From a virus, in the IMG/VR virus record IMGVR_UViG_3300049718_000055, positions 24,633 to 88,632 of that record: a stretch of 64,000 nt of DNA; one strand, given 5' to 3'. The notes under the pieces were generated by a model. That model saw only the letters and a list, made by a program, of their open reading frames with translations. It did no database searches and was not told where the DNA came from. A program made the position numbers and the translations under genes. Below, piece by piece: positions 4,206 to 28,515 of this stretch. Position 1 is the stretch's first letter. Each line of letters begins with the position of its first letter.

Positions 4206-7200
4206 CTACTTCGGGGGTGGTTGGATCTTCTTCGTGCCGGACCATTCGTTTACCTTCGGGATCGTCCCAAGAGGCCATGCAATCCGCTTCGCCTCTTTTG
4301 CTGATTCCTTTTCCAGATTCTTCCCGAACTTCTTTACCGTGGGGTTCTTCAATTTGCTGGTGTCATCTGCGGCTTTGGGAACAGTCGAACCGGCCATGAA
4401 AATATCCTTGTAGATGCTTCCCACCAAACGATCCAATTCGTCGGTTGCCATGTACCCCATCATCTTATACAGCTTCTTCTCTTCTCCCTCTGCGGCCATC
4501 ATGCCAATATCTGTCCACATCTTCATTCTGTCGTTCGCCATGCCGATGAAGAGGCTATCCAGACAGATTTTAAGGGCTCCGGACCATGGATGCTTCTCTA
4601 AGTCCCTGTAATCTTCCAGTAAATTATCCCAACTGTCCCTCGTGTGAGATTGTCCCGTTGCTCCCTCAAATGCTTTCTGAGCCCCGTGCTTCACTCCCGC
4701 CTTCAGATTCATTAAGGCAAATCCAGCGGCCGGATAAAGCAAGAAAAACGGCAACAGTGGTCTGAAGTTGCGATGATGGAATACCTCATCAAAATACCAT
4801 TCCTTGATCCCCGAATAACTCTTGATCTGGAATGACTGAAGGTTGTAAGCTGCGTGTGCTACGGCATGGAGATTCTTTTCCGCATCTCCAAGACCTTCAG
4901 ACATACTCAGTTTTGCCATTCTCGGCATCTGTTCCGGCTGCTCTGTGAATGCAACTTTGTTGGCAAACACCCTTTCGGCCTTCCACTTCGATTCTTCGTC
5001 CCAGCGGTTGTTTGCCACGGCCTTATTGATCTCGTCGTCGCTCAATAGCATACGATCTTTCAATAAACGCCTTGAAGTCTCTGCCCGCTTTCCCCCAGCT
5101 TTCAAATCGCTGAGAACGTCAAGGTCCATCCATGCCCAAGCAATCTCTCCAACGGTAGCCCGCTGCCAGTTGTAAACATCGCTAAATCCTGTTGCTTTTA
5201 GCATTTCCTTGGCTACACCAAAGTTCTTTCCTTCAATCAGCGCAGGATTCATTCTCGGCGTTACAACCCCGACATAAAACTTTTCACGCATTCTCTCCTT
5301 CGGATGACGAAACATCCTATAATTTCCGACAAACCACGGCTTGAGACCGAGTTGTCCGGCATGAACATTGTGGAATGCAACCGAGATCGGAGACAGGCTC
5401 ATCTTCGTGATGACCTCGAAAGGCTGCATGAACCGATACATTCTTCCAACCCTTGTGTTCCAGTCTTGATACTCAAAATACAGCTTCAAGTTTTCTGTCA
5501 AATCTTTTCTCAATGCAGAACTAGGAACGTCGGCAATCAAACTGCCAACCTTGCCCATGTCGTGACCGAGCGTGGACTCTAACGCTACTGCGCTTCCAAG
5601 CTGGTCGAAATACTTATTCAATGCCCAAATATCTTTCTTATAGAACGGATGATTAACCGTCCTTTTCGTGGTTACATTCGGGTTTCTAGGACGCTTCAAG
5701 CGGCGCTCACGGTCTCTGCTTAACTCCCCAAGCCAACGATGCGCATCTCCCGTTCCTACTTTCAATCTCTGTCTCTCCTTTTCGAGATAGCGCAACTTTG
5801 CTACATCGTCGAGAGTTTTATCGTCGCAAACTTCCGAAAGAGTCCTTATCTCTCCTGTCTCCGAGTCCGTCAATTCCATGTCCCAGTCTGTTTCATGGGG
5901 CATATAATGCGGGTTGTTTGGAACATCATATATGCTGCCGTCTTCCCGATGTACACCTTCTTTAGTTGCCAACTCGTTCGCTTCATCCATCAACAGACGC
6001 AATTCCTCTGCGGCTTTGTTGATACGAGGATCGTTCGATGCTACACGCCCCTCTTTAACATCCCACACTTCGCGTACATCGTCATGACCCGGCCTACGCA
6101 GCCACTCCTTAACCTTCCCTTCCACTGGACCGTCTGAATTCCATTCCAATTTGTTCTCTTTGAAAATATCAATCAAACGCATCTGGAAGTTTCCAGAGAT
6201 TCCCATTTGTTTCTGCTGATAGTCGTCAAGTTTGTCAAAAACCGCTCCGGTCTTTTCTAAGTACCCGCTCTTTCTCGATACGCCCAAAGCCCTCATCCTG
6301 AAGTTCATGCCAAGAGTACGCTTCTGATAGTTTGCATATTCCTTGTCAAACCAGCGCCTCACCTTGTCTTGCATACCGATTTTTCTAGCCGCATTGATAG
6401 CAGGAATCCTGATCTTTTCTTTGATTCTCTGACCGAAAGTAGGCTCTTCCGACTCTCCAAGCCTGCGCTCTTCAAGGCCGCTCGTGTCTCTGCCAAGCAT
6501 CTTCTTTGCATGATAGAGAGGGCCAGACCACTCGCCCGTTTCGGGATCATAGGTAAAACCGTGACTCTGAAGTTCGCCCTTCATTGCGTAGCTTCCAGCT
6601 TCGGCAGGGTCAATGCCCTCTGGGGTTATACCGGCCACTTCTGAGGCGTGTGCAGCCCCAAGAGCGATGGTTTCCTTTGGGATGTCTGGATTCTTCGCCG
6701 CGGACTCGGCTATGTCGTTGATTGCCTTTTCCGCTTTCACGTTCGTCGGAGGCGGAGTAAAGGCTCTTTCCTTGTCCTGGTACATATTGGTCCAGTCCGC
6801 CCCCTCCTGAGCCCCAGTCCTCAAGCCCTTGTTCATTGCCTCCGATGCCGGCGGAATCTGGATTGCATCCCAACTGTCGATTCCTACCACTCTGCCGGCG
6901 TGACGCACTCCAAAGTCTGCGGCCTTGACCTCGATTTCGTTGCCGTTCGCAAAATTCAATGTGTCCTGCTCGGCCCGCGTCCTCTCCACGTCGCTGTAGT
7001 TCTCCATTGCCGTAGCAAGAGAGTCCTTTATGCCATGCACGGCCGCACGAATAGACCGCATCCTCGGAGCCACAAGTTCCTTCATAATCCTGACCTGCGG
7101 CGCCGCGTCGGTCCCAAGGAAAACTACATGGACATCGGACTTGGTTCCGTCTCTCCACGGCCTGCCAAGGGTCTGCTCTAACAGCACTCCAGAGTAAGGC

Positions 7201-22423: not shown

Positions 22424-22501
22424 TGGTACTCCCGGTTGGACTCGAACCAACATCAATCCACTTACGGACACTCGCTTCGGAGGCGAGACCGATACGGGAG
22501 C
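22424..22501 (-). tRNA. tRNA-Arg(CCG), no canonical D-arm
   Basis: CTCGC-CT CCG AA-GCGAG; 7-nt connector. Confidence 0.85.
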
Positions 22502-22506
22502 ATAAC

Positions 22507-22583
22507 TGGGGCCGCTGGCCGGAATCGAACCGGCGTCATCCAACTACTCTTGCCGGTTTAGGAAACCGGAGAGATACAGCGGC
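22507..22583 (-). tRNA. tRNA-Arg(CCT), no canonical D-arm
   Basis: CCGGT-TT CCT AA-ACCGG; 7-nt connector. Confidence 0.85.
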
Positions 22584-22587
22584 AAAC

Positions 22588-22664
22588 TGGCGCTCCCGGC
22601 AGGAGTCGAACCCGCGTCATCCGTCTACGGCCTCCTGTTTAGAAGACAGTGCCGATACGGGAGC
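22588..22664 (-). tRNA. tRNA-Arg(TCT), no canonical D-arm
   Basis: CTGT-CT TCT AA-ACAG; 7-nt connector. Confidence 0.85.
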
Positions 22665-22666
22665 AT

Positions 22667-23095: not shown

Positions 23096-23121
23096 ATAAA
23101 AAACCCGCTCCTGAGAGCGGG
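23096..23121 (-). terminator. Attenuator terminator, operon 1
   Basis: CCCGCTC-TCAG-GAGCGGG-TTTTTT, upstream of tRNA-Trp. Confidence 0.9.
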
Positions 23122-23148
23122 CCTGTCGCAACAAAAACGCAGCAGACC

Positions 23149-23220
23149 CTAAAACACGACTCCCCAAATGACCCGCTTCCCGGTCATTCTGGTTATCACG
23201 TGTTTGGTCCTGATCTGCAT
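23149..23220 (-). CDS. Leader peptide 1 MQIRTKHVITRMTGKRVIWGVVF
   Basis: AGGTGG RBS; codons match all 12 downstream tRNAs. Confidence 0.85.
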   Translation of the reverse strand: MQIRTKHVITRMTGKRVIWGVVF

Positions 23221-24458: not shown

Positions 24459-24473
24459 ACCCTCCTTTTTATT

Positions 24474-24548
24474 TGGTGAGCGCGGAGGGAATCGAACCCC
24501 CATCGTTGCGTTCGTAGCGCAGCACTCTATCCGTTGAGCTACGCGCCC
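24474..24548 (-). tRNA. tRNA-Arg(ACG)
   Basis: TGCG-CT ACG AA-CGCA; canonical D-arm with GGA. Confidence 0.92.
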
Positions 24549-24559
24549 ACATTCAAACT

Positions 24560-24633
24560 TGGTCTCCGAGGGCGGACTCGAACCGCCGACACCGCGCCCC
24601 GAACGCGGGATGTTTCCACTACACTACTCAGAG
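24560..24633 (-). tRNA. tRNA-Pro(CGG)
   Basis: CCGCG-TT CGG GG-CGCGG. Confidence 0.9.
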
Positions 24634-24634
24634 A

Positions 24635-24708
24635 TGGTCAGCGAGGGGAGAATTGAACTCCCACCACAAGTTCCCAAGACTTGGATGCAACCATTACACC
24701 ACTCACTG
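24635..24708 (-). tRNA. tRNA-Pro(TGG)
   Basis: CAAGT-CT TGG GA-ACTTG. Confidence 0.92.
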
Positions 24709-24717
24709 ATTAAAAGT

Positions 24718-24885
24718 TATGCGTGACGGAATCAAACCGTCTCCACCCGCTCCAATGCGGGAGTGCTATCCGTCCAGAGTCGTGTCGATCTTGAGCCGCT
24801 ACGTATCGCCCCAAAACGCATTCCACTGTACTGCCTTCGCTACGCTCCGTCGAGCTTCACTTTGGCTTCATTACACCAACGCATA
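24718..24885 (-). ncRNA. tRNA-like element with ~97-nt insertion in the D-loop, 6-nt anticodon loop, no CCA
   Basis: TATGCGT/ACGCATA acceptor, GTGT/GCAC D-stem, CCCGC-ATTGGA-GCGGG, GACGG-TTTGATT-CCGTC. Confidence 0.7.
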
Positions 24886-24887
24886 CT

Positions 24888-24963
24888 TGGTGCCGACTAC
24901 CCGTATCGAGCGGGTTTCCATCGCTCTTCAGGCGATTGCTATGACCTCATCAGCTAAGTCGGC
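24888..24963 (-). tRNA. tRNA-Phe(GAA)
   Basis: ATCGC-CT GAA GA-GCGAT. Confidence 0.9.
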
Positions 24964-24968
24964 AAAAC

Positions 24969-25044
24969 TGGTGGACCTAGAGGGGCTTGAGTCCTCGACC
25001 TCCCCGGTGCAAACGGGGTGCTACTCCATCTGAGCTATAGGCCC
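24969..25044 (-). tRNA. tRNA-Ala(TGC)
   Basis: CCCCG-TT TGC AC-CGGGG; G3:U70. Confidence 0.92.
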
Positions 25045-25052
25045 GTAAAACT

Positions 25053-25128
25053 TGGAGGGAAAGGTGGGAGTTGGACCCACTAGAACCTGTTCCACAGACA
25101 GGCGCCGCACCGTTTGGCTTCAGTCCCC
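25053..25128 (-). tRNA. tRNA-His(GTG)
   Basis: CCTGT-CT GTG GA-ACAGG; G-1 present; two acceptor mismatches. Confidence 0.85.
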
Positions 25129-25138
25129 ATAAAGCTGT

Positions 25139-25210
25139 TGGGGCCGGATGTGGGAATCTAACCCACCGCGCAGGCCGTACAAAGGGCTGCTGCTACTCAG
25201 AGCATCCGGC
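25139..25210 (-). tRNA. tRNA-Thr(TGT), atypical
   Basis: TT TGT AC loop, short D-arm, T-loop TTAGATT. Confidence 0.75.
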
Positions 25211-25759
25211 TCAGTTAAACGCATACCTCTTATCACCTTCGGAGTCCGTGAATAAAAACGGACCCCACTCATTTACCTCGGCGCCGAGAGACCTCAACAA
25301 AAATCGCGGCGTGTGAATCGACTGCGGCAGCGGCCGGCGAAGCAACTTCATTCCAGCTTCCTCCGGCGTCCGGTCGGCCTTGCGGTGATTATCTTTGGCG
25401 CAACATGAAACCAAGTTGCTCCACGATGGCGATCCTCCTCTTGACTTTGGAATTATGTGGTCAAGAGTTAGTTCGCTAGTCTTGAACCTTTCTCCGCAAT
25501 ACATACACCTTTCTCCGTCACGAAGAAAAATGTTCTTGCGGCTTACAACTTGAAGCCTAATTGGGACGTGGCGATAAGCGCGAAGCCTGATTACCGATGG
25601 AGCATAGATTCCAAGTCCGCGATGGATAAGTACATCGGTAGGAACCTCAACCAGAGCAACACCTTTCGTAATAAGAGTCAGAGCCTTCTTAACTGAAACT
25701 ATGCGAAGCGGCTCATACGATGCATTGAGAAGAAGTGTTGCGCTTTTTCCTATTGTCAT
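25211..25759 (-). CDS. HNH endonuclease (McrA-like, tRNA-array-associated type)
   Basis: LLLNASYEPL..PSVIRL..RDGERCMYCG..LTLDHIIPKSRGG..WSNLV..N. Confidence 0.93.
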   Translation of the reverse strand: MTIGKSATLLLNASYEPLRIVSVKKALTLITKGVALVEVPTDVLIHRGLGIYAPSVIRLRAYRHVPIRLQVVSRKNIFLRDGERCMYCGERFKTSELTLDHIIPKSRGGSPSWSNLVSCCAKDNHRKADRTPEEAGMKLLRRPLPQSIHTPRFLLRSLGAEVNEWGPFLFTDSEGDKRYAFN

Positions 25760-26531
25760 AGTCACCACGCTCCCAACGTTCTTTCAGTAAAGCAGACATC
25801 TTCGCCTTAGTTTCTTCCTTGTGCTTCATACCTTTGTTTCCAGGTACTCTGCCTTTCCTGATTGCCGACTGTTTAGCCCGTGTTTCTTCGGAAGCCTTTT
25901 TACCTGTCAGAGAGCGAGAAATCTTTGCTTTACTCTCTTCTGAAAGTTTCCTTCGTCTGTTCGCCGCAGAAATCTTCTCACTAAATCCCTGCGGTTTAGG
26001 TCTCCCCTTCAAAGCAGCAGATCGTTTTGCTTTTTCTTCCTCCGACATTGGGCCTAATTTCCGGCCCCTAAATGATGCCGACATACGCGCTTTGGTTTCT
26101 TCCGAACGCTTTGAACCAGTCCTAGATTTAATCATCTTGGCTATCGCCTCTGCTGTGTGTCTCAATCCCTTATGCACAGCAGATACTTTCGCTTTCATTT
26201 CGGCTGTTCTAACCGCTCCTGATCCTCCCTCGCCCCCATCTGTTCTATTTCTCAAGCATCCAGTTCCAAGGTTAATTCTCCCATGGAATTTTATTAGCTG
26301 CTTCTCCATGAAAAACGCTTCGTCCTCTGACAAATCTTTGGCAATAATTACAATCATCGATTTATCTTTTGGAGTACGTATCGCTTCAATAGGATTTTTC
26401 TTATAGGCTCTTAACCCGTGTCCTTTCCCTATGTAATAAGGAGAACCCGCTGGGCCGTGTTCGGAGGCAAAAGTCCTCACGTATTGGTATACGTAAAACC
26501 CAGAGATTACAGGTCTCCTATAGTTACTCAC
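25713..26531 (-). CDS. GIY-YIG homing endonuclease with NUMOD3 repeats
   Basis: FYVYQY..PYYIGKG..R..NRTDGGEG, repeated SEETKAKMS; start revised to GTG 26531 because a tRNA lies upstream. Confidence 0.88.
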   Translation of the reverse strand: MSNYRRPVISGFYVYQYVRTFASEHGPAGSPYYIGKGHGLRAYKKNPIEAIRTPKDKSMIVIIAKDLSEDEAFFMEKQLIKFHGRINLGTGCLRNRTDGGEGGSGAVRTAEMKAKVSAVHKGLRHTAEAIAKMIKSRTGSKRSEETKARMSASFRGRKLGPMSEEEKAKRSAALKGRPKPQGFSEKISAANRRRKLSEESKAKISRSLTGKKASEETRAKQSAIRKGRVPGNKGMKHKEETKAKMSALLKERWERGDYDNRKKRNTSSQCIV

Positions 26532-26555
26532 TGTCTTACTCTCTTTCCTTAAAAG

Positions 26556-26630
26556 TGGAGCCGGGTAGCGAAATCGAATCGCTGTCTGTGGGATACGAAT
26601 CCACTGCTCTGCCATCTGAGCTAACCCGAC
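26556..26630 (-). tRNA. tRNA-Thr(CGT)
   Basis: GTGGA-TT CGT AT-CCCAC. Confidence 0.9.
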
Positions 26631-26713
26631 TATGTTTTTCTGCTAACCTCTTCCACACTTCTCGGAGATCGGCATTCAAATGAAACCTGTGCGGCATGTC
26701 AACCTCCAAAATT

Positions 26714-26787
26714 TGGAGCGGTTTGCCGGATTTGAACCGGCGCTTTCGCCCTGGCAAGGCAACGTCTTACCACTCGACTAAAACCGC
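26714..26787 (-). tRNA. tRNA-Gly(GCC)
   Basis: TTGCC-TT GCC AG-GGCGA. Confidence 0.92.
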
Positions 26788-26792
26788 TTCAC

Positions 26793-26866
26793 TGGCTCCG
26801 AGAGTAGGAGTCGAACCTACACAGCGAGCTTCAAAGACTCGCGGCCTACCGTTAACCGATCTCGGA
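26793..26866 (-). tRNA. tRNA-Gln(TTG)
   Basis: CGAGT-CT TTG AA-GCTCG. Confidence 0.9.
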
Positions 26867-26873
26867 TCAAACT

Positions 26874-26949
26874 TGGCTGGGAAGGCAAGTCTCGAACTTG
26901 CTACCTTCCGGGTCAGAGCCGGACGTTCTACCCGTTGAACTTCTTCCCA
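26874..26949 (-). tRNA. tRNA-Gln(CTG)
   Basis: TCCGG-CT CTG AC-CCGGA. Confidence 0.92.
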
Positions 26950-26958
26950 ACTTCAAAC

Positions 26959-27033
26959 TGGCTGTGCAGGTGGGAGTCGGACCCACATCCTCTCGCTTAA
27001 CAGGCGAACGCTCGACCATTGAGCTACCGCACA
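26959..27033 (-). tRNA. tRNA-Asn(GTT)
   Basis: TCGC-CT GTT AA-GCGA. Confidence 0.92.
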
Positions 27034-27035
27034 TC

Positions 27036-27074
27036 AAAAAGCCCCTAACCGCTTATTCTCGGCTAGGGGCTTTT
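27036..27074 (-). terminator. Attenuator terminator, operon 2
   Basis: GCCCCTAGCCG-8nt-CGGTTAGGGGC-TTTTT, 2 nt before tRNA-Asn. Confidence 0.9.
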
Positions 27075-27117
27075 CCTCATTTGCTACGTTGTAGCAGTTG
27101 AATCTTTGCGCCCAAGC

Positions 27118-27180
27118 CTACACGGGATTACCGAACGCTTGTGGCGTTGTCGGCTGTCCGGTATGGGCTCGGTTCATCAT
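27118..27180 (-). CDS. Leader peptide 2 MMNRAHTGQPTTPQAFGNPV
   Basis: ATG 7 nt after the -10 box (leaderless); codons match all 12 downstream tRNAs. Confidence 0.87.
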   Translation of the reverse strand: MMNRAHTGQPTTPQAFGNPV

Positions 27181-27187
27181 GTTTCCT

Positions 27188-27216
27188 ACTTTACCGCCGT
27201 TCGCAATTTCTGTCAA
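27188..27216 (-). promoter_or_regulatory. Sigma70-like promoter P2
   Basis: TTGACA-17-TAAAGT. Confidence 0.85.
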
Positions 27217-27225
27217 ATCATTTTC

Positions 27226-27302
27226 TGGTAGGGTTGGTGGAACTCGAATCCACTAGGACATGATTGAAGGTCATGGTGCTCGTCCGCTTTGCATTCAACC
27301 CC
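27226..27302 (-). tRNA. tRNA-Glu(TTC), C33
   Basis: CATGA-CC TTC AA-TCATG. Confidence 0.87.
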
Positions 27303-27307
27303 ATAAC

Positions 27308-27384
27308 TGGCGCGGTAGACGGAAATCGAATCCGTGTACACGATCTTGAGAGAATCGCTGGAGAACCAGCACCCCTGCTACCGC
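27308..27384 (-). tRNA. tRNA-Glu(CTC)
   Basis: CGATT-CT CTC AA-GATCG. Confidence 0.87.
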
Positions 27385-27385
27385 A

Positions 27386-27460
27386 TGGCGGTCCCACGGG
27401 GAGTTGAACCCCGAACGCCTCTTAGACAGAGAGGAATCATTGCCGTTAGACCATGGGACC
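27386..27460 (-). tRNA. tRNA-Asp(GTC)
   Basis: CCTCT-CT GTC TA-AGAGG. Confidence 0.9.
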
Positions 27461-27464
27461 AAAA

Positions 27465-27583
27465 GTTCCGTTTTGTTTGCCTAGCGGCCCAGTCTCCCAT
27501 CGCATTAGCAGAATTCCGACTGAGGTTCATCCACTGCGGACTCGAGTCCGTTTGCTAGACTCTTGCCAGAACGGTACTGGCCT
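27465..27583 (-). ncRNA. Unassigned structured RNA between tRNA-Met and tRNA-Asp
   Basis: Nested helices CCGTTCTG/CAAAACGG, GTCTAGC/GCTAGGC, CGGAC-TCGA-GTCCG, CTCAGTC/GACTGGG. Confidence 0.55.
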
Positions 27584-27589
27584 TTGGAT

Positions 27590-27664
27590 TGGTTGCGTGG
27601 GGAGGACTCGAACCTCCGGTCTCCAGCTTATGAGGCTGGCGAGATGCCGCTTCTCTACCTCGCC
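27590..27664 (-). tRNA. tRNA-Met(CAT), 1-72 mismatch (initiator-like)
   Basis: CCAGC-CT CAT AA-GCTGG; G1xA72. Confidence 0.87.
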
Positions 27665-27669
27665 ATTTC

Positions 27670-27698
27670 AGTATGCCACTACTCTTTCATGTTGGCAA
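27670..27698 (-). promoter_or_regulatory. Internal sigma70-like promoter P4
   Basis: TTGCCA-17-CATACT, 5 nt upstream of tRNA-Met. Confidence 0.7.
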
Positions 27699-27701
27699 GT
27701 A

Positions 27702-27787
27702 TGGTGCATCGCCCCAGGCTCGAACTGGGCTGCTCCGAAGAGCGGCAGGTTTACAGTCTGCTGGCCGTCCACCCGACCATGCGATGC
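27702..27787 (-). tRNA. tRNA-Tyr(GTA)
   Basis: GCAG-ACT GTA AAC-CTGC; long V arm. Confidence 0.92.
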
Positions 27788-27791
27788 AAAA

Positions 27792-27881
27792 TGGAGGAAG
27801 GTGGAGTAATCGAAACCCTACGCCATCGCTGACGCACCACGGTTTTCAGGACCGTTCGCCGACCATTCAGCGGCACCTTCC
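27792..27881 (-). tRNA. tRNA-Ser(TGA), 8/4 fold
   Basis: GGAAGGTG/CACCTTCC 8-bp acceptor, 4-bp T-stem, ACGGT-CC TGA AA-ACCGT. Confidence 0.85.
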
Positions 27882-27885
27882 AAAC

Positions 27886-27973
27886 TGGCGGAGACGATCC
27901 GATTTGAACGGATGGAACCTTGCGGTTCGGAGGTTTAGCAAACCTCTGGATTAGACCGCTCTCCCACGTCTCC
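27886..27973 (-). tRNA. tRNA-Ser(GCT)
   Basis: GAGGT-TT GCT AA-ACCTC; long V arm. Confidence 0.92.
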
Positions 27974-27978
27974 AAACT

Positions 27979-28054
27979 TGGTGCCGATGGTCGGGTACGA
28001 GCCGACAAGCCTGAAGGTTTGAGCTTCAGAGGTATTCCTTCCCATCACATCGGC
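27979..28054 (-). tRNA. tRNA-Leu(CAA), short variable loop
   Basis: TGAAG-CT CAA AC-CTTCA. Confidence 0.85.
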
Positions 28055-28059
28055 AAAAC

Positions 28060-28135
28060 TGGTGCGGGTGGAGGGACTCGAACCCCCATGAGACTGATCC
28101 TAAGTCAGCCGCGTATTCCATTCCGCCACACCCGC
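28060..28135 (-). tRNA. tRNA-Leu(TAG), short variable loop
   Basis: GCTGA-CT TAG GA-TCAGT. Confidence 0.9.
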
Positions 28136-28146
28136 ACATCTCAAAC

Positions 28147-28219
28147 TGGAGTACCGGGCCGGACTTTAACCGGCTTCAACGGTTTTGCAGACCGTCCGCT
28201 CGCCCTTCGCTTCCGGTAC
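28147..28219 (-). tRNA. tRNA-Cys(GCA)
   Basis: ACGGT-CT GCA AA-ACCGT; U73. Confidence 0.88.
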
Positions 28220-28220
28220 A

Positions 28221-28298
28221 TGGTGCGGGTGAACGGTGTCGAACCGATCCTAAACTGGGCTTAAACCAGTTGCCTCTTCCAACGTGGGCTACACCCGC
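28221..28298 (-). tRNA. tRNA-Leu(TAA), short variable loop
   Basis: ACTGG-TT TAA GC-CCAGT. Confidence 0.88.
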
Positions 28299-28300
28299 AC

Positions 28301-28334
28301 AAAACAAAGCCGCCGATCTCTTCGACCGGCGGCT
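28301..28334 (-). terminator. Attenuator terminator, operon 3
   Basis: AGCCGCCGGTC-GAAGA-GATCGGCGGCT-TTGTTTT, directly before tRNA-Leu. Confidence 0.9.
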
Positions 28335-28360
28335 CGTGAATTCCAAACTTTGGAATCAGT

Positions 28361-28426
28361 TCACATAAGCCCCCGGCCCGTCAATGGCAGGCAATACGAG
28401 GATAGCGAACTGAGTAAAATTCTCAT
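28361..28426 (-). CDS. Leader peptide 3 MRILLSSLSSYCLPLTGRGLM
   Basis: ATG 6 nt after the -10 box (leaderless); all six Leu codons, 4 Ser, Tyr, Cys. Confidence 0.87.
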   Translation of the reverse strand: MRILLSSLSSYCLPLTGRGLM

Positions 28427-28432
28427 ATCCAA

Positions 28433-28461
28433 ATCTTCCCACAGATAATCATTATTGTCAA
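28433..28461 (-). promoter_or_regulatory. Sigma70-like promoter P3
   Basis: TTGACA-17-GAAGAT with extended TGn. Confidence 0.75.
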
Positions 28462-28515
28462 TCGGTCATTCCGGTACAGTTAAATTCCCCTCTTCGTCCT
28501 CCAATTGAGGCTGAG

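Follow-up and report, generated by a model that had tools for sequence, protein, structure and literature searches.

A putative leader-peptide attenuator in a phage tRNA array carries codons for the tRNA block behind it

A 20-codon open reading frame (ORF), here called L2, lies between a promoter-like sequence and an intrinsic terminator at the head of a block of 12 phage tRNA genes, and it contains at least one codon cognate to each of the 12. We consider it likely that L2 is a ribosome-mediated transcription attenuator of the trp/thr type, which would sense tRNA supply and gate the block behind it (block 2) and, in this virus, also rtcB. The same reading had been proposed in a preliminary description made from the DNA letters. 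All of its elements that could be checked have held, and comparative support has now been added from two sister units in the same array, from other viral lineages and from a cultured phage.

The Virus and Its tRNA Array

The window, i.e., the whole stretch of 64,000 nucleotides (nt) analysed here, belongs to an 88.6-kb IMG/VR virus contig that occurs in peat, bog and freshwater metagenomes. The phage has no close cultured relative as judged by its major capsid protein, for which cultured relatives show 30% identity or less, and a megablast search of window positions 26000-28500 against isolated phages gave no match. The features described below are collected in Table 1.

Block 2 has the order Asn, two Gln, Gly, Thr, a NUMOD3 ORF, an HNH ORF, Thr, His, Ala, Phe, a 175-nt tRNA-like insert, two Pro and Arg. 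Its tRNAs are Asn-GTT, Gln-CTG, Gln-TTG, Gly-GCC, Thr-CGT, Thr-TGT, His-GTG, Ala-TGC, Phe-GAA, Pro-TGG, Pro-CGG and Arg-ACG. The Thr-TGT and His genes were called only by relaxed ARAGORN, the His stretch also being scored by Rfam; the Ala gene is an Rfam tRNA hit only, and its anticodon was read by eye.

Table 1. Features of the tRNA array in the window, and leaders of the cultured phage Tunturi_5
Feature	Coordinates	Strand	Description
tRNA array	28298 to 22097	minus	about 35 tRNAs by ARAGORN, Rfam and inspection
Sister unit L1	28307..28461	minus	promoter, ORF 28426..28361, terminator 28335..28307
L2 unit	27216..27036	minus	promoter, 20-codon ORF, terminator, then tRNA-Asn
L2 -35 box TTGACA	27211..27216	minus	identical in relative L096
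L2 -10 box TAAAGT	27188..27193	minus	17-nt spacer after -35 box
L2 leader ORF	27118..27180	minus	20 codons and TAG (27120..27118); peptide MMNRAHTGQPTTPQAFGNPV
L2 region 1, CCGAGCC (codons 3-5)	27166..27172	minus	predicted partner of region 2 in free RNA
L2 region 2, GGCTTGGGCG	27109..27118	minus	putative antiterminator strand; first base is the G of the TAG stop
L2 small spacer hairpin	27077..27102	minus	enclosed by the putative antiterminator helix
L2 intrinsic terminator	27036..27075	minus	5' arm 27075..27060; 3' arm and U-run 27051..27036
tRNA block 2	24474..27033	minus	12 tRNAs and 2 ORFs
NUMOD3 ORF	26555..25713	minus	Pfam
HNH ORF	25768..25211	minus	Pfam
rtcB, 392 aa	23274..24452	minus	Pfam RtcB
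Sister unit L3	23101..23269	minus	TTGCAC-17-TACGCT promoter, ORF 23220..23149, terminator 23124..23101
Tunturi_5 L1-type leader	L114:9157-9255		unannotated; 14/31 codons own-block; terminator follows
Tunturi_5 L2-type leader	L112:4455-4568		unannotated; 24/36 codons own-block; terminator follows
Tunturi_5 L3-type leader	L112:16806-16955		hypothetical gp308; 33/48 codons own-block; terminator follows

The array has some other unusual features. The 175-nt insert (24709-24887, minus strand), which is located between tRNA-Phe and tRNA-Pro, consists of a tRNA-like acceptor stem (TATGCGT/ACGCATA) and a T-arm around a long internal region, and contigs from related strains (runs X4 and X5) omit exactly 24710-24884 of it. 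Two tRNA-like genes on the minus strand escaped ARAGORN: a Glu-TTC-like gene at 27229-27305, just upstream of the L2 promoter, which Rfam also missed, and a Ser-TGA gene at 27796-27881. At position 33 both apparently carry C in place of U. Three tandem tRNA-Arg genes (TCT, CCT and CCG; 22424-22665, minus strand) have the D-arm replaced by about 7 nt and a variable region of 18-20 nt. An AAGTTT(G/T) spacer recurs after many tRNA 3' ends in the window, e.g., at 24549-24559 and 26867-26873, and it also precedes the first tRNA past the terminator in two of the related lineages described below (G001 and L108); this spacer may be a processing signal. Finally, a TCCAAA..TTTGGA sequence, which resembles a palindrome described below for the L1 unit, overlaps the 3' end of tRNA-Gly (about 26704-26718, minus strand).

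Anatomy of the L2 Unit

The L2 promoter, TTGACA-17-TAAAGT, agrees with the consensus at 10 of 12 positions; this is a consensus match only, and its use by the host polymerase is assumed. Seven nucleotides (AGGAAAC) separate the -10 box from the start codon, which is doubled (ATGATG), and so short a distance suggests that the L2 mRNA is probably leaderless, with the transcript beginning at or next to the AUG. The terminator has a 16-bp stem (-26.9 kcal/mol) that ends in UUUUU. The first tRNA gene, tRNA-Asn, begins 2-4 nt past the terminator, and this gap is too small for any promoter.

A search of 27034..27216 against Rfam at E<=1 found no T-box and no other known RNA family. Logan contigs from RNA libraries that are identical to the window cover tRNA parts of the array (e.g., 26820-27016 and 27445-27651) and none of them extends over 27034-27216; these contigs could also reflect DNA carry-over.

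The elements of the unit agree with the preliminary description. The ORF that it quoted matches the minus strand exactly at 27180..27118, and residues 3-19 of the peptide, all 17 of them, do fall within the set N/Q/G/T/H/A/F/P/R. Its suggestion of a leaderless mRNA fits a wider pattern, as 10 of 13 leader units examined across these lineages have their ATG 6-8 nt past the -10 box. The pairing that it drew between the strand next to the stop codon, GGCTTGGGCG, and the 5' arm of the terminator is borne out as well, this strand being the leader segment that pairs best with the arm.

The Codons of L2 Match the tRNAs of Block 2

By standard wobble, block 2 tRNAs are cognate to 13 of the 19 codons that follow the start, and every one of the 12 tRNAs is represented at least once. 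When 400,000 random 19-codon strings were drawn from the codon usage of the phage itself, the probability of full coverage was about 1e-4, and that of full coverage together with this number of cognate codons was about 2e-5. The window contains 1601 short ORFs (every ORF of 15-35 codons, counted over all six frames of the 64,000 nt). L2, counted with its alternative starts, is the only one of them that covers 12 of 12 tRNAs, and it also has the highest share of block amino acids. Short ORFs are abundant in the window, as the count of 1601 indicates, and one of them might simply have fallen into the spacer by chance. Given these probabilities, those for the two sister units (below) and the replication of the pattern in independent lineages, we regard a chance ORF as effectively refuted.

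The match has its limits. Six of the 19 codons have no cognate tRNA in block 2 under strict wobble, and each tRNA is represented by one or two codons only. The Phe and Gly-GCC codons are at positions 16-17, near the point beyond which a ribosome stalled there would cover the antiterminator strand.

Two Sister Units in the Same Array

Two more units of the same kind, L1 and L3, are present in the array, each in front of a different block. The L1 ORF is rich in L, S, Y and C, and the block behind it encodes three Leu, one Cys, two Ser and one Tyr tRNAs; the codon match of L1 to its own block has a probability of about 3e-5. The block behind L3 consists of Trp, Met, Ile-TAT, two Lys, Arg-TCT/CCT/CCG, Val, Thr-GGT, Ile-GAT and Gly-TCC, and the L3 ORF includes the codons ATA, AGA, AGG, CGG, TGG, AAA and AAG. 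L3 covers 12 of 12 tRNAs with 17 of 22 codons cognate (P < 3e-6). In the window, in three of the related lineages (L096, G001 and G002) and in the cultured phage Tunturi_5, L1, L2 and L3 each fit their own block and not the other two.

A palindrome, ATTCCAAAGTTTGGAAT, is located between the L1 stop codon and the L1 terminator (28340-28356, minus strand) and is kept in L096 (13916-13932). A protein might bind to it, or it might form a hairpin at which polymerase pauses.

L2-Type Leaders in Other Viral Lineages

An exact 24-mer from the core of L2 is absent from IMG/VR, and blastn and nhmmer searches with the whole L2 spacer against 80 RtcB-linked viral loci gave chance-level matches only. The L2 spacer thus has no detectable nucleotide homologue there, and its relatives were therefore located by synteny. 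L2-type leaders were found in this way in four further IMG/VR lineages; Tunturi_5 has one too. The four are G001 (IMGVR_UViG_3300037099_000274, locus L083), G002/G003 (3300032677_000017 and 3300032562_000046, loci L092/L093 and L094), L096/G006 (3300036886_000043, a complete 97-kb genome) and L108 (3300037843_001124). One candidate, L088, was rejected as a relative; it has one tRNA and a chance match of an L2 17-mer, and seven of eight previously unseen loci that match this 17-mer are unrelated sequence.

All four lineages have a TTGACA-type promoter, 7-10 nt, a short ORF, a terminator and a block that begins Asn-Gln-Gln-Gly-Thr. Their ORFs draw on the same N/Q/G/T/H/A/F/P/R set in permuted order, for example MKNRVNHGFTPATAQPTQGNPM in L096 and MSFRAHTAFTPATAQPRQGNDM in G002. 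The match to the own block is 15/21 cognate codons and 11/11 tRNAs in L096, 20/30 and 11/12 in G001, and 18/21 and 14/17 in G002. Thus, the nucleotide sequence and the order of the peptide drift across lineages, whereas the codon set, the promoter-proximal position and the putative antiterminator strand next to the stop codon are kept. The L2 units are in fact too divergent to be aligned unless they are fitted to the proposed structure.

The closest relative, L096, shows the same pattern over a shorter distance. Its promoter is 100% conserved with that of the window, whereas the interior of the ORF has diverged; the one indel within the ORF is 6 nt and keeps the frame, and those outside it are 3, 17, 7, 1 and 2 nt. 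In G002/G003, the whole of block 2 is inverted along with the leader and terminator in front of it; the block has gained Thr-GGT, Arg-GCG/TCG, Asp and two Glu tRNAs, and an inserted HNH gene separates tRNA-Asn from the terminator. Codons for D and E enter the leaders where Asp and Glu tRNAs join the block, as in G002 L2, Tunturi_5 L3 and two loci with merged blocks (L005 and L011).

G001 also has a fourth leaderless-type promoter with a 26-codon ORF, located 76 nt upstream of tRNA-Met (L083, reverse-complement 5808-5925); its counterpart in the window is a promoter-like site only (27698..27670). Three relatives, L098, L099 and L100, which share the 1280-amino-acid protein at 70-73% identity, have one tRNA in the stretch adjoining it (up to 10 kb on each side). 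This observation suggests that the tRNA array and its attenuators are an accessory module.

A Cultured Example

The best match to RtcB among isolated phages, with 74% identity, is in Tunturi_5 (PP885688.1), a 309-kb jumbo myovirus that infects the acidobacterium Tunturiibacter psychrotolerans X4BP1. The tRNA array of this phage is homologous, and its blocks are in the same order as in the window. The host of the window phage may therefore also be an acidobacterium. The paper on Tunturi_5 lists 43 tRNAs and a ligase and no leaders (PMC11924767). Nevertheless, all three leader types are present (Table 1); compared with the window, the blocks are larger and the leaders longer (32-49 codons). A regular expression for a promoter followed by ATG found no sigma-70-type promoter upstream of the Tunturi_5 leaders.

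Folding and the Proposed Switch

The L2 leader RNA of 152 nt is predicted to fold far better than shuffled controls (z=-9.1). Its alternative states were folded as the transcript up to the terminator loop with the ribosome footprint masked. In free window RNA, the stop-adjacent strand GGCUUGGGCG is predicted to be held by codons 3-5. With the A site anywhere at codons 3-15, the predicted fold frees this strand, which then pairs with 9 nt of the 5' arm of the terminator. With the ribosome at the stop codon the strand is masked, and the terminator is predicted to form.

The masked folds of G002 are predicted to behave in the same way. In the predicted folds of L096 the antiterminator forms in free RNA too, and only a ribosome at the stop codon abolishes it. 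In G001 the predicted antiterminator strand is inside a longer ORF, and in L108 the minimum free energy fold pairs codons 2-4 with a strand after the stop that, by inspection, can also pair with the 5' arm of the terminator. Altogether, four of the five metagenomic lineages have a strand at the stop codon with these alternatives, i.e., the early codons or the 5' arm of the terminator. In the window, G002 and L096, no other leader segment pairs as well with the 5' arm as the stop-adjacent strand does. In shuffle tests, the p values for this (2:3) pairing are 0.006 for the window, 0.028 for G002 and 0.002 for L108; that for L096 (0.22) is not significant. The 1:2 pairing is weakly supported overall in such tests. 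The sequence of the helices differs among lineages and their complementarity is kept.

These predictions lead us to the following model. Host RNA polymerase would start at the sigma-70-type promoter and produce a transcript that begins at or next to the AUG, and a ribosome would then translate the 20-codon leader, sampling codons of the 12 downstream tRNAs as it goes. If decoding is fast, the ribosome would reach the UAG and cover GGCUUGGGCG, the terminator would form, and transcription would stop 2-4 nt before tRNA-Asn. If decoding is slow because charged tRNA is short, the ribosome would lag at about codons 3-15 and open the 1:2 hairpin; the freed stop-adjacent strand could then pair with the 5' arm of the terminator, and polymerase would read through into the tRNAs, the homing-endonuclease ORFs and rtcB. 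In this way the unit would measure tRNA supply and exert negative feedback on it, combining about 12 isoacceptors by OR logic or by summation. Since there are one or two codons only per tRNA, L2 probably sums decoding delays over these isoacceptors. How sensitive such a device would be is uncertain, as classical attenuators have tandem runs of the sensed codons where L2 has one or two per tRNA.

rtcB and the Other Genes behind L2

The start codon of rtcB is 21 nt past tRNA-Arg, the last tRNA of block 2, and its Shine-Dalgarno sequence, AGGAGG (24466..24461), begins 8 nt past the 3' end of that tRNA. The preliminary description had named an independent rtcB promoter as an observation that would speak against gating by L2; a consensus scan of the minus strand from 27188 to 23274 found no promoter. 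It had also seen no terminator in between; the scan shows only one weak terminator-like site (26456..26444) between the L2 promoter and the end of rtcB. Because of the 21-nt gap, the result of the promoter scan and the presence of just this one weak site, rtcB is likely to be co-transcribed with block 2. The genes said to lie in between were GIY-YIG and HNH. Pfam agrees on HNH, as it does on RtcB; however, it assigns the supposed GIY-YIG ORF (26555..25713) to NUMOD3 only and finds no GIY-YIG domain in it, although a YVY...YIGKG motif is visible by eye.

That L2 would also gate rtcB is plausible from the spacing and the promoter scan, but this part of the claim has to be narrowed to certain lineages. 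The gene is within the block behind the L2-type leader in G001 and Tunturi_5 and within the merged blocks of L005 and L011. Neither the complete genome G006 nor G002 contains it, and any coupling of tRNA repair to tRNA replacement would therefore be accessory and lineage-specific, not core.

Alternative Explanations

The codon match would be equally compatible with a leader that senses decoding but regulates some step other than termination, such as access of Rho, cleavage by an RNase, maturation of the first tRNA by RNase P or precursor stability. Such a step would fit the terminators of G001 and L108, which have no U-tract, and the L1-type leader of L011, which abuts tRNA-Ser with no obvious terminator hairpin. 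On the other hand, a canonical GC-rich stem and U-run come right after the leader in the window, L096, G002 and Tunturi_5, and pairing of the stop-adjacent strand is specific to the terminator arm, so we consider a step of this kind unlikely. Slightly less likely still is that the unit is an independent gene for a small RNA or a micropeptide, the tRNAs being reached by processive antitermination of the phage or by timed read-through, with the codon match as a by-product. A promoter, a highly structured RNA of about 145 nt with the z-score given above and a terminator are indeed the anatomy of a small RNA gene, and phage T4 provides a precedent, since its tRNA cluster encodes stable RNAs of unknown function. 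However, a by-product cannot explain a block-specific match in three units and five to six genomes, nor the retention of the codon set while the order of the peptide and the RNA sequence drift, nor the frame-preserving indel relative to L096. A functional micropeptide was rejected for its own reason: the order of the peptide is too poorly conserved.

Direct sensing of tRNA by the RNA itself, in the manner of a T-box and with no need for translation, would give an outcome of the same kind, namely control of an antiterminator by tRNA status. We think this very improbable: an RNA of about 150 nt cannot plausibly bind 12 different tRNAs, an in-frame ORF is conserved, and Rfam found no T-box at 27034..27216 (E<=1).

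Relation to Known Systems

A full-text literature search found nothing on leader-peptide attenuation of tRNA genes. Ribosome-mediated attenuation itself is well known from enterobacteria, where a promoter-proximal ORF carries the sensed codons, the leader can form 1:2, 2:3 and 3:4 hairpins, and the antiterminator cannot form while a ribosome occupies the stop codon. Some of these leaders are multivalent, e.g., thrL (Thr/Ile) and the ilvGMEDA leader (Leu/Val/Ile); trpL, hisL and pheL are other examples. L2 resembles them in its short promoter-proximal ORF, alternative hairpins and intrinsic terminator. It differs in that it would gate tRNA genes and rtcB instead of biosynthetic enzymes, and in that it addresses nine amino acids and 12 isoacceptors with about one codon each and no tandem runs. 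It is also phage-encoded, its mRNA is probably leaderless, and it is one of three units indexed to three blocks. What is new here, as far as the in silico evidence supports it, is therefore the tRNA gene target, the codon design and the phage location.

Two other systems respond to tRNA. The pheST attenuator of E. coli, with its pheM leader, controls a component of translation by the charging of tRNA-Phe; as is proposed for L2, it is a leader-peptide attenuator on the translation apparatus, but its target is a synthetase and its signal one amino acid only. In T-box riboswitches, which have no need of an ORF, the RNA itself binds one uncharged tRNA; they share with the proposed role of L2 that tRNA status chooses between antiterminator and terminator in front of genes related to translation.

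Among published systems, the closest is the trn L-array of Anabaena sp. PCC 7120, a set of supernumerary, horizontally mobile tRNAs that are silent until translation is impaired and are co-expressed with rtcB (PMC8421152). Like block 2 it combines tRNAs with rtcB. It is, however, cellular and not phage-borne, and it is controlled by a protein repressor, TrcR, which acts on direct repeats over the -10 box and the start site (PMC10272220). The terms 'attenuat' and 'leader' are absent from the 2021 paper on this array (PMC8421152).

Concluding Remarks

A broader interpretation, which we offer tentatively and hold to be the less probable side of the matter, is that the three attenuators, each indexed to its block by codons, together serve the phage as an array of sensors for the tRNA pool of the host. 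Depletion of certain isoacceptors, be it by host anticodon nucleases, by other tRNA-targeting defences or by the codon demand of the phage itself, would switch on the matching block, in the case of block 2 together with RtcB. The mobile module would consist of the leaders and their blocks, with or without rtcB, and it might move horizontally among unrelated Acidobacteriota phages, from the 88-kb virus described here to a 309-kb jumbo myovirus.

These ideas are directly testable, because a cultured pair, Tunturi_5 and T. psychrotolerans X4BP1, carries the units and the window promoters resemble E. coli sigma-70 promoters. The compact design, with about one codon per isoacceptor, a leaderless mRNA and many inputs, might also be adapted as a synthetic device that senses how fast codons are decoded.

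The unit bears on why phages carry large sets of tRNA genes and on when they use them. If L2 functions as we propose, phage tRNA genes would be expressed on demand, as a feedback-controlled supply, and tRNA genes would join amino-acid biosynthesis as a target of trp/thr attenuation logic. Its link to rtcB suggests, in addition, that the replacement of tRNAs may be coupled to their repair, and this would bear on the defences by which hosts attack phages through tRNA.
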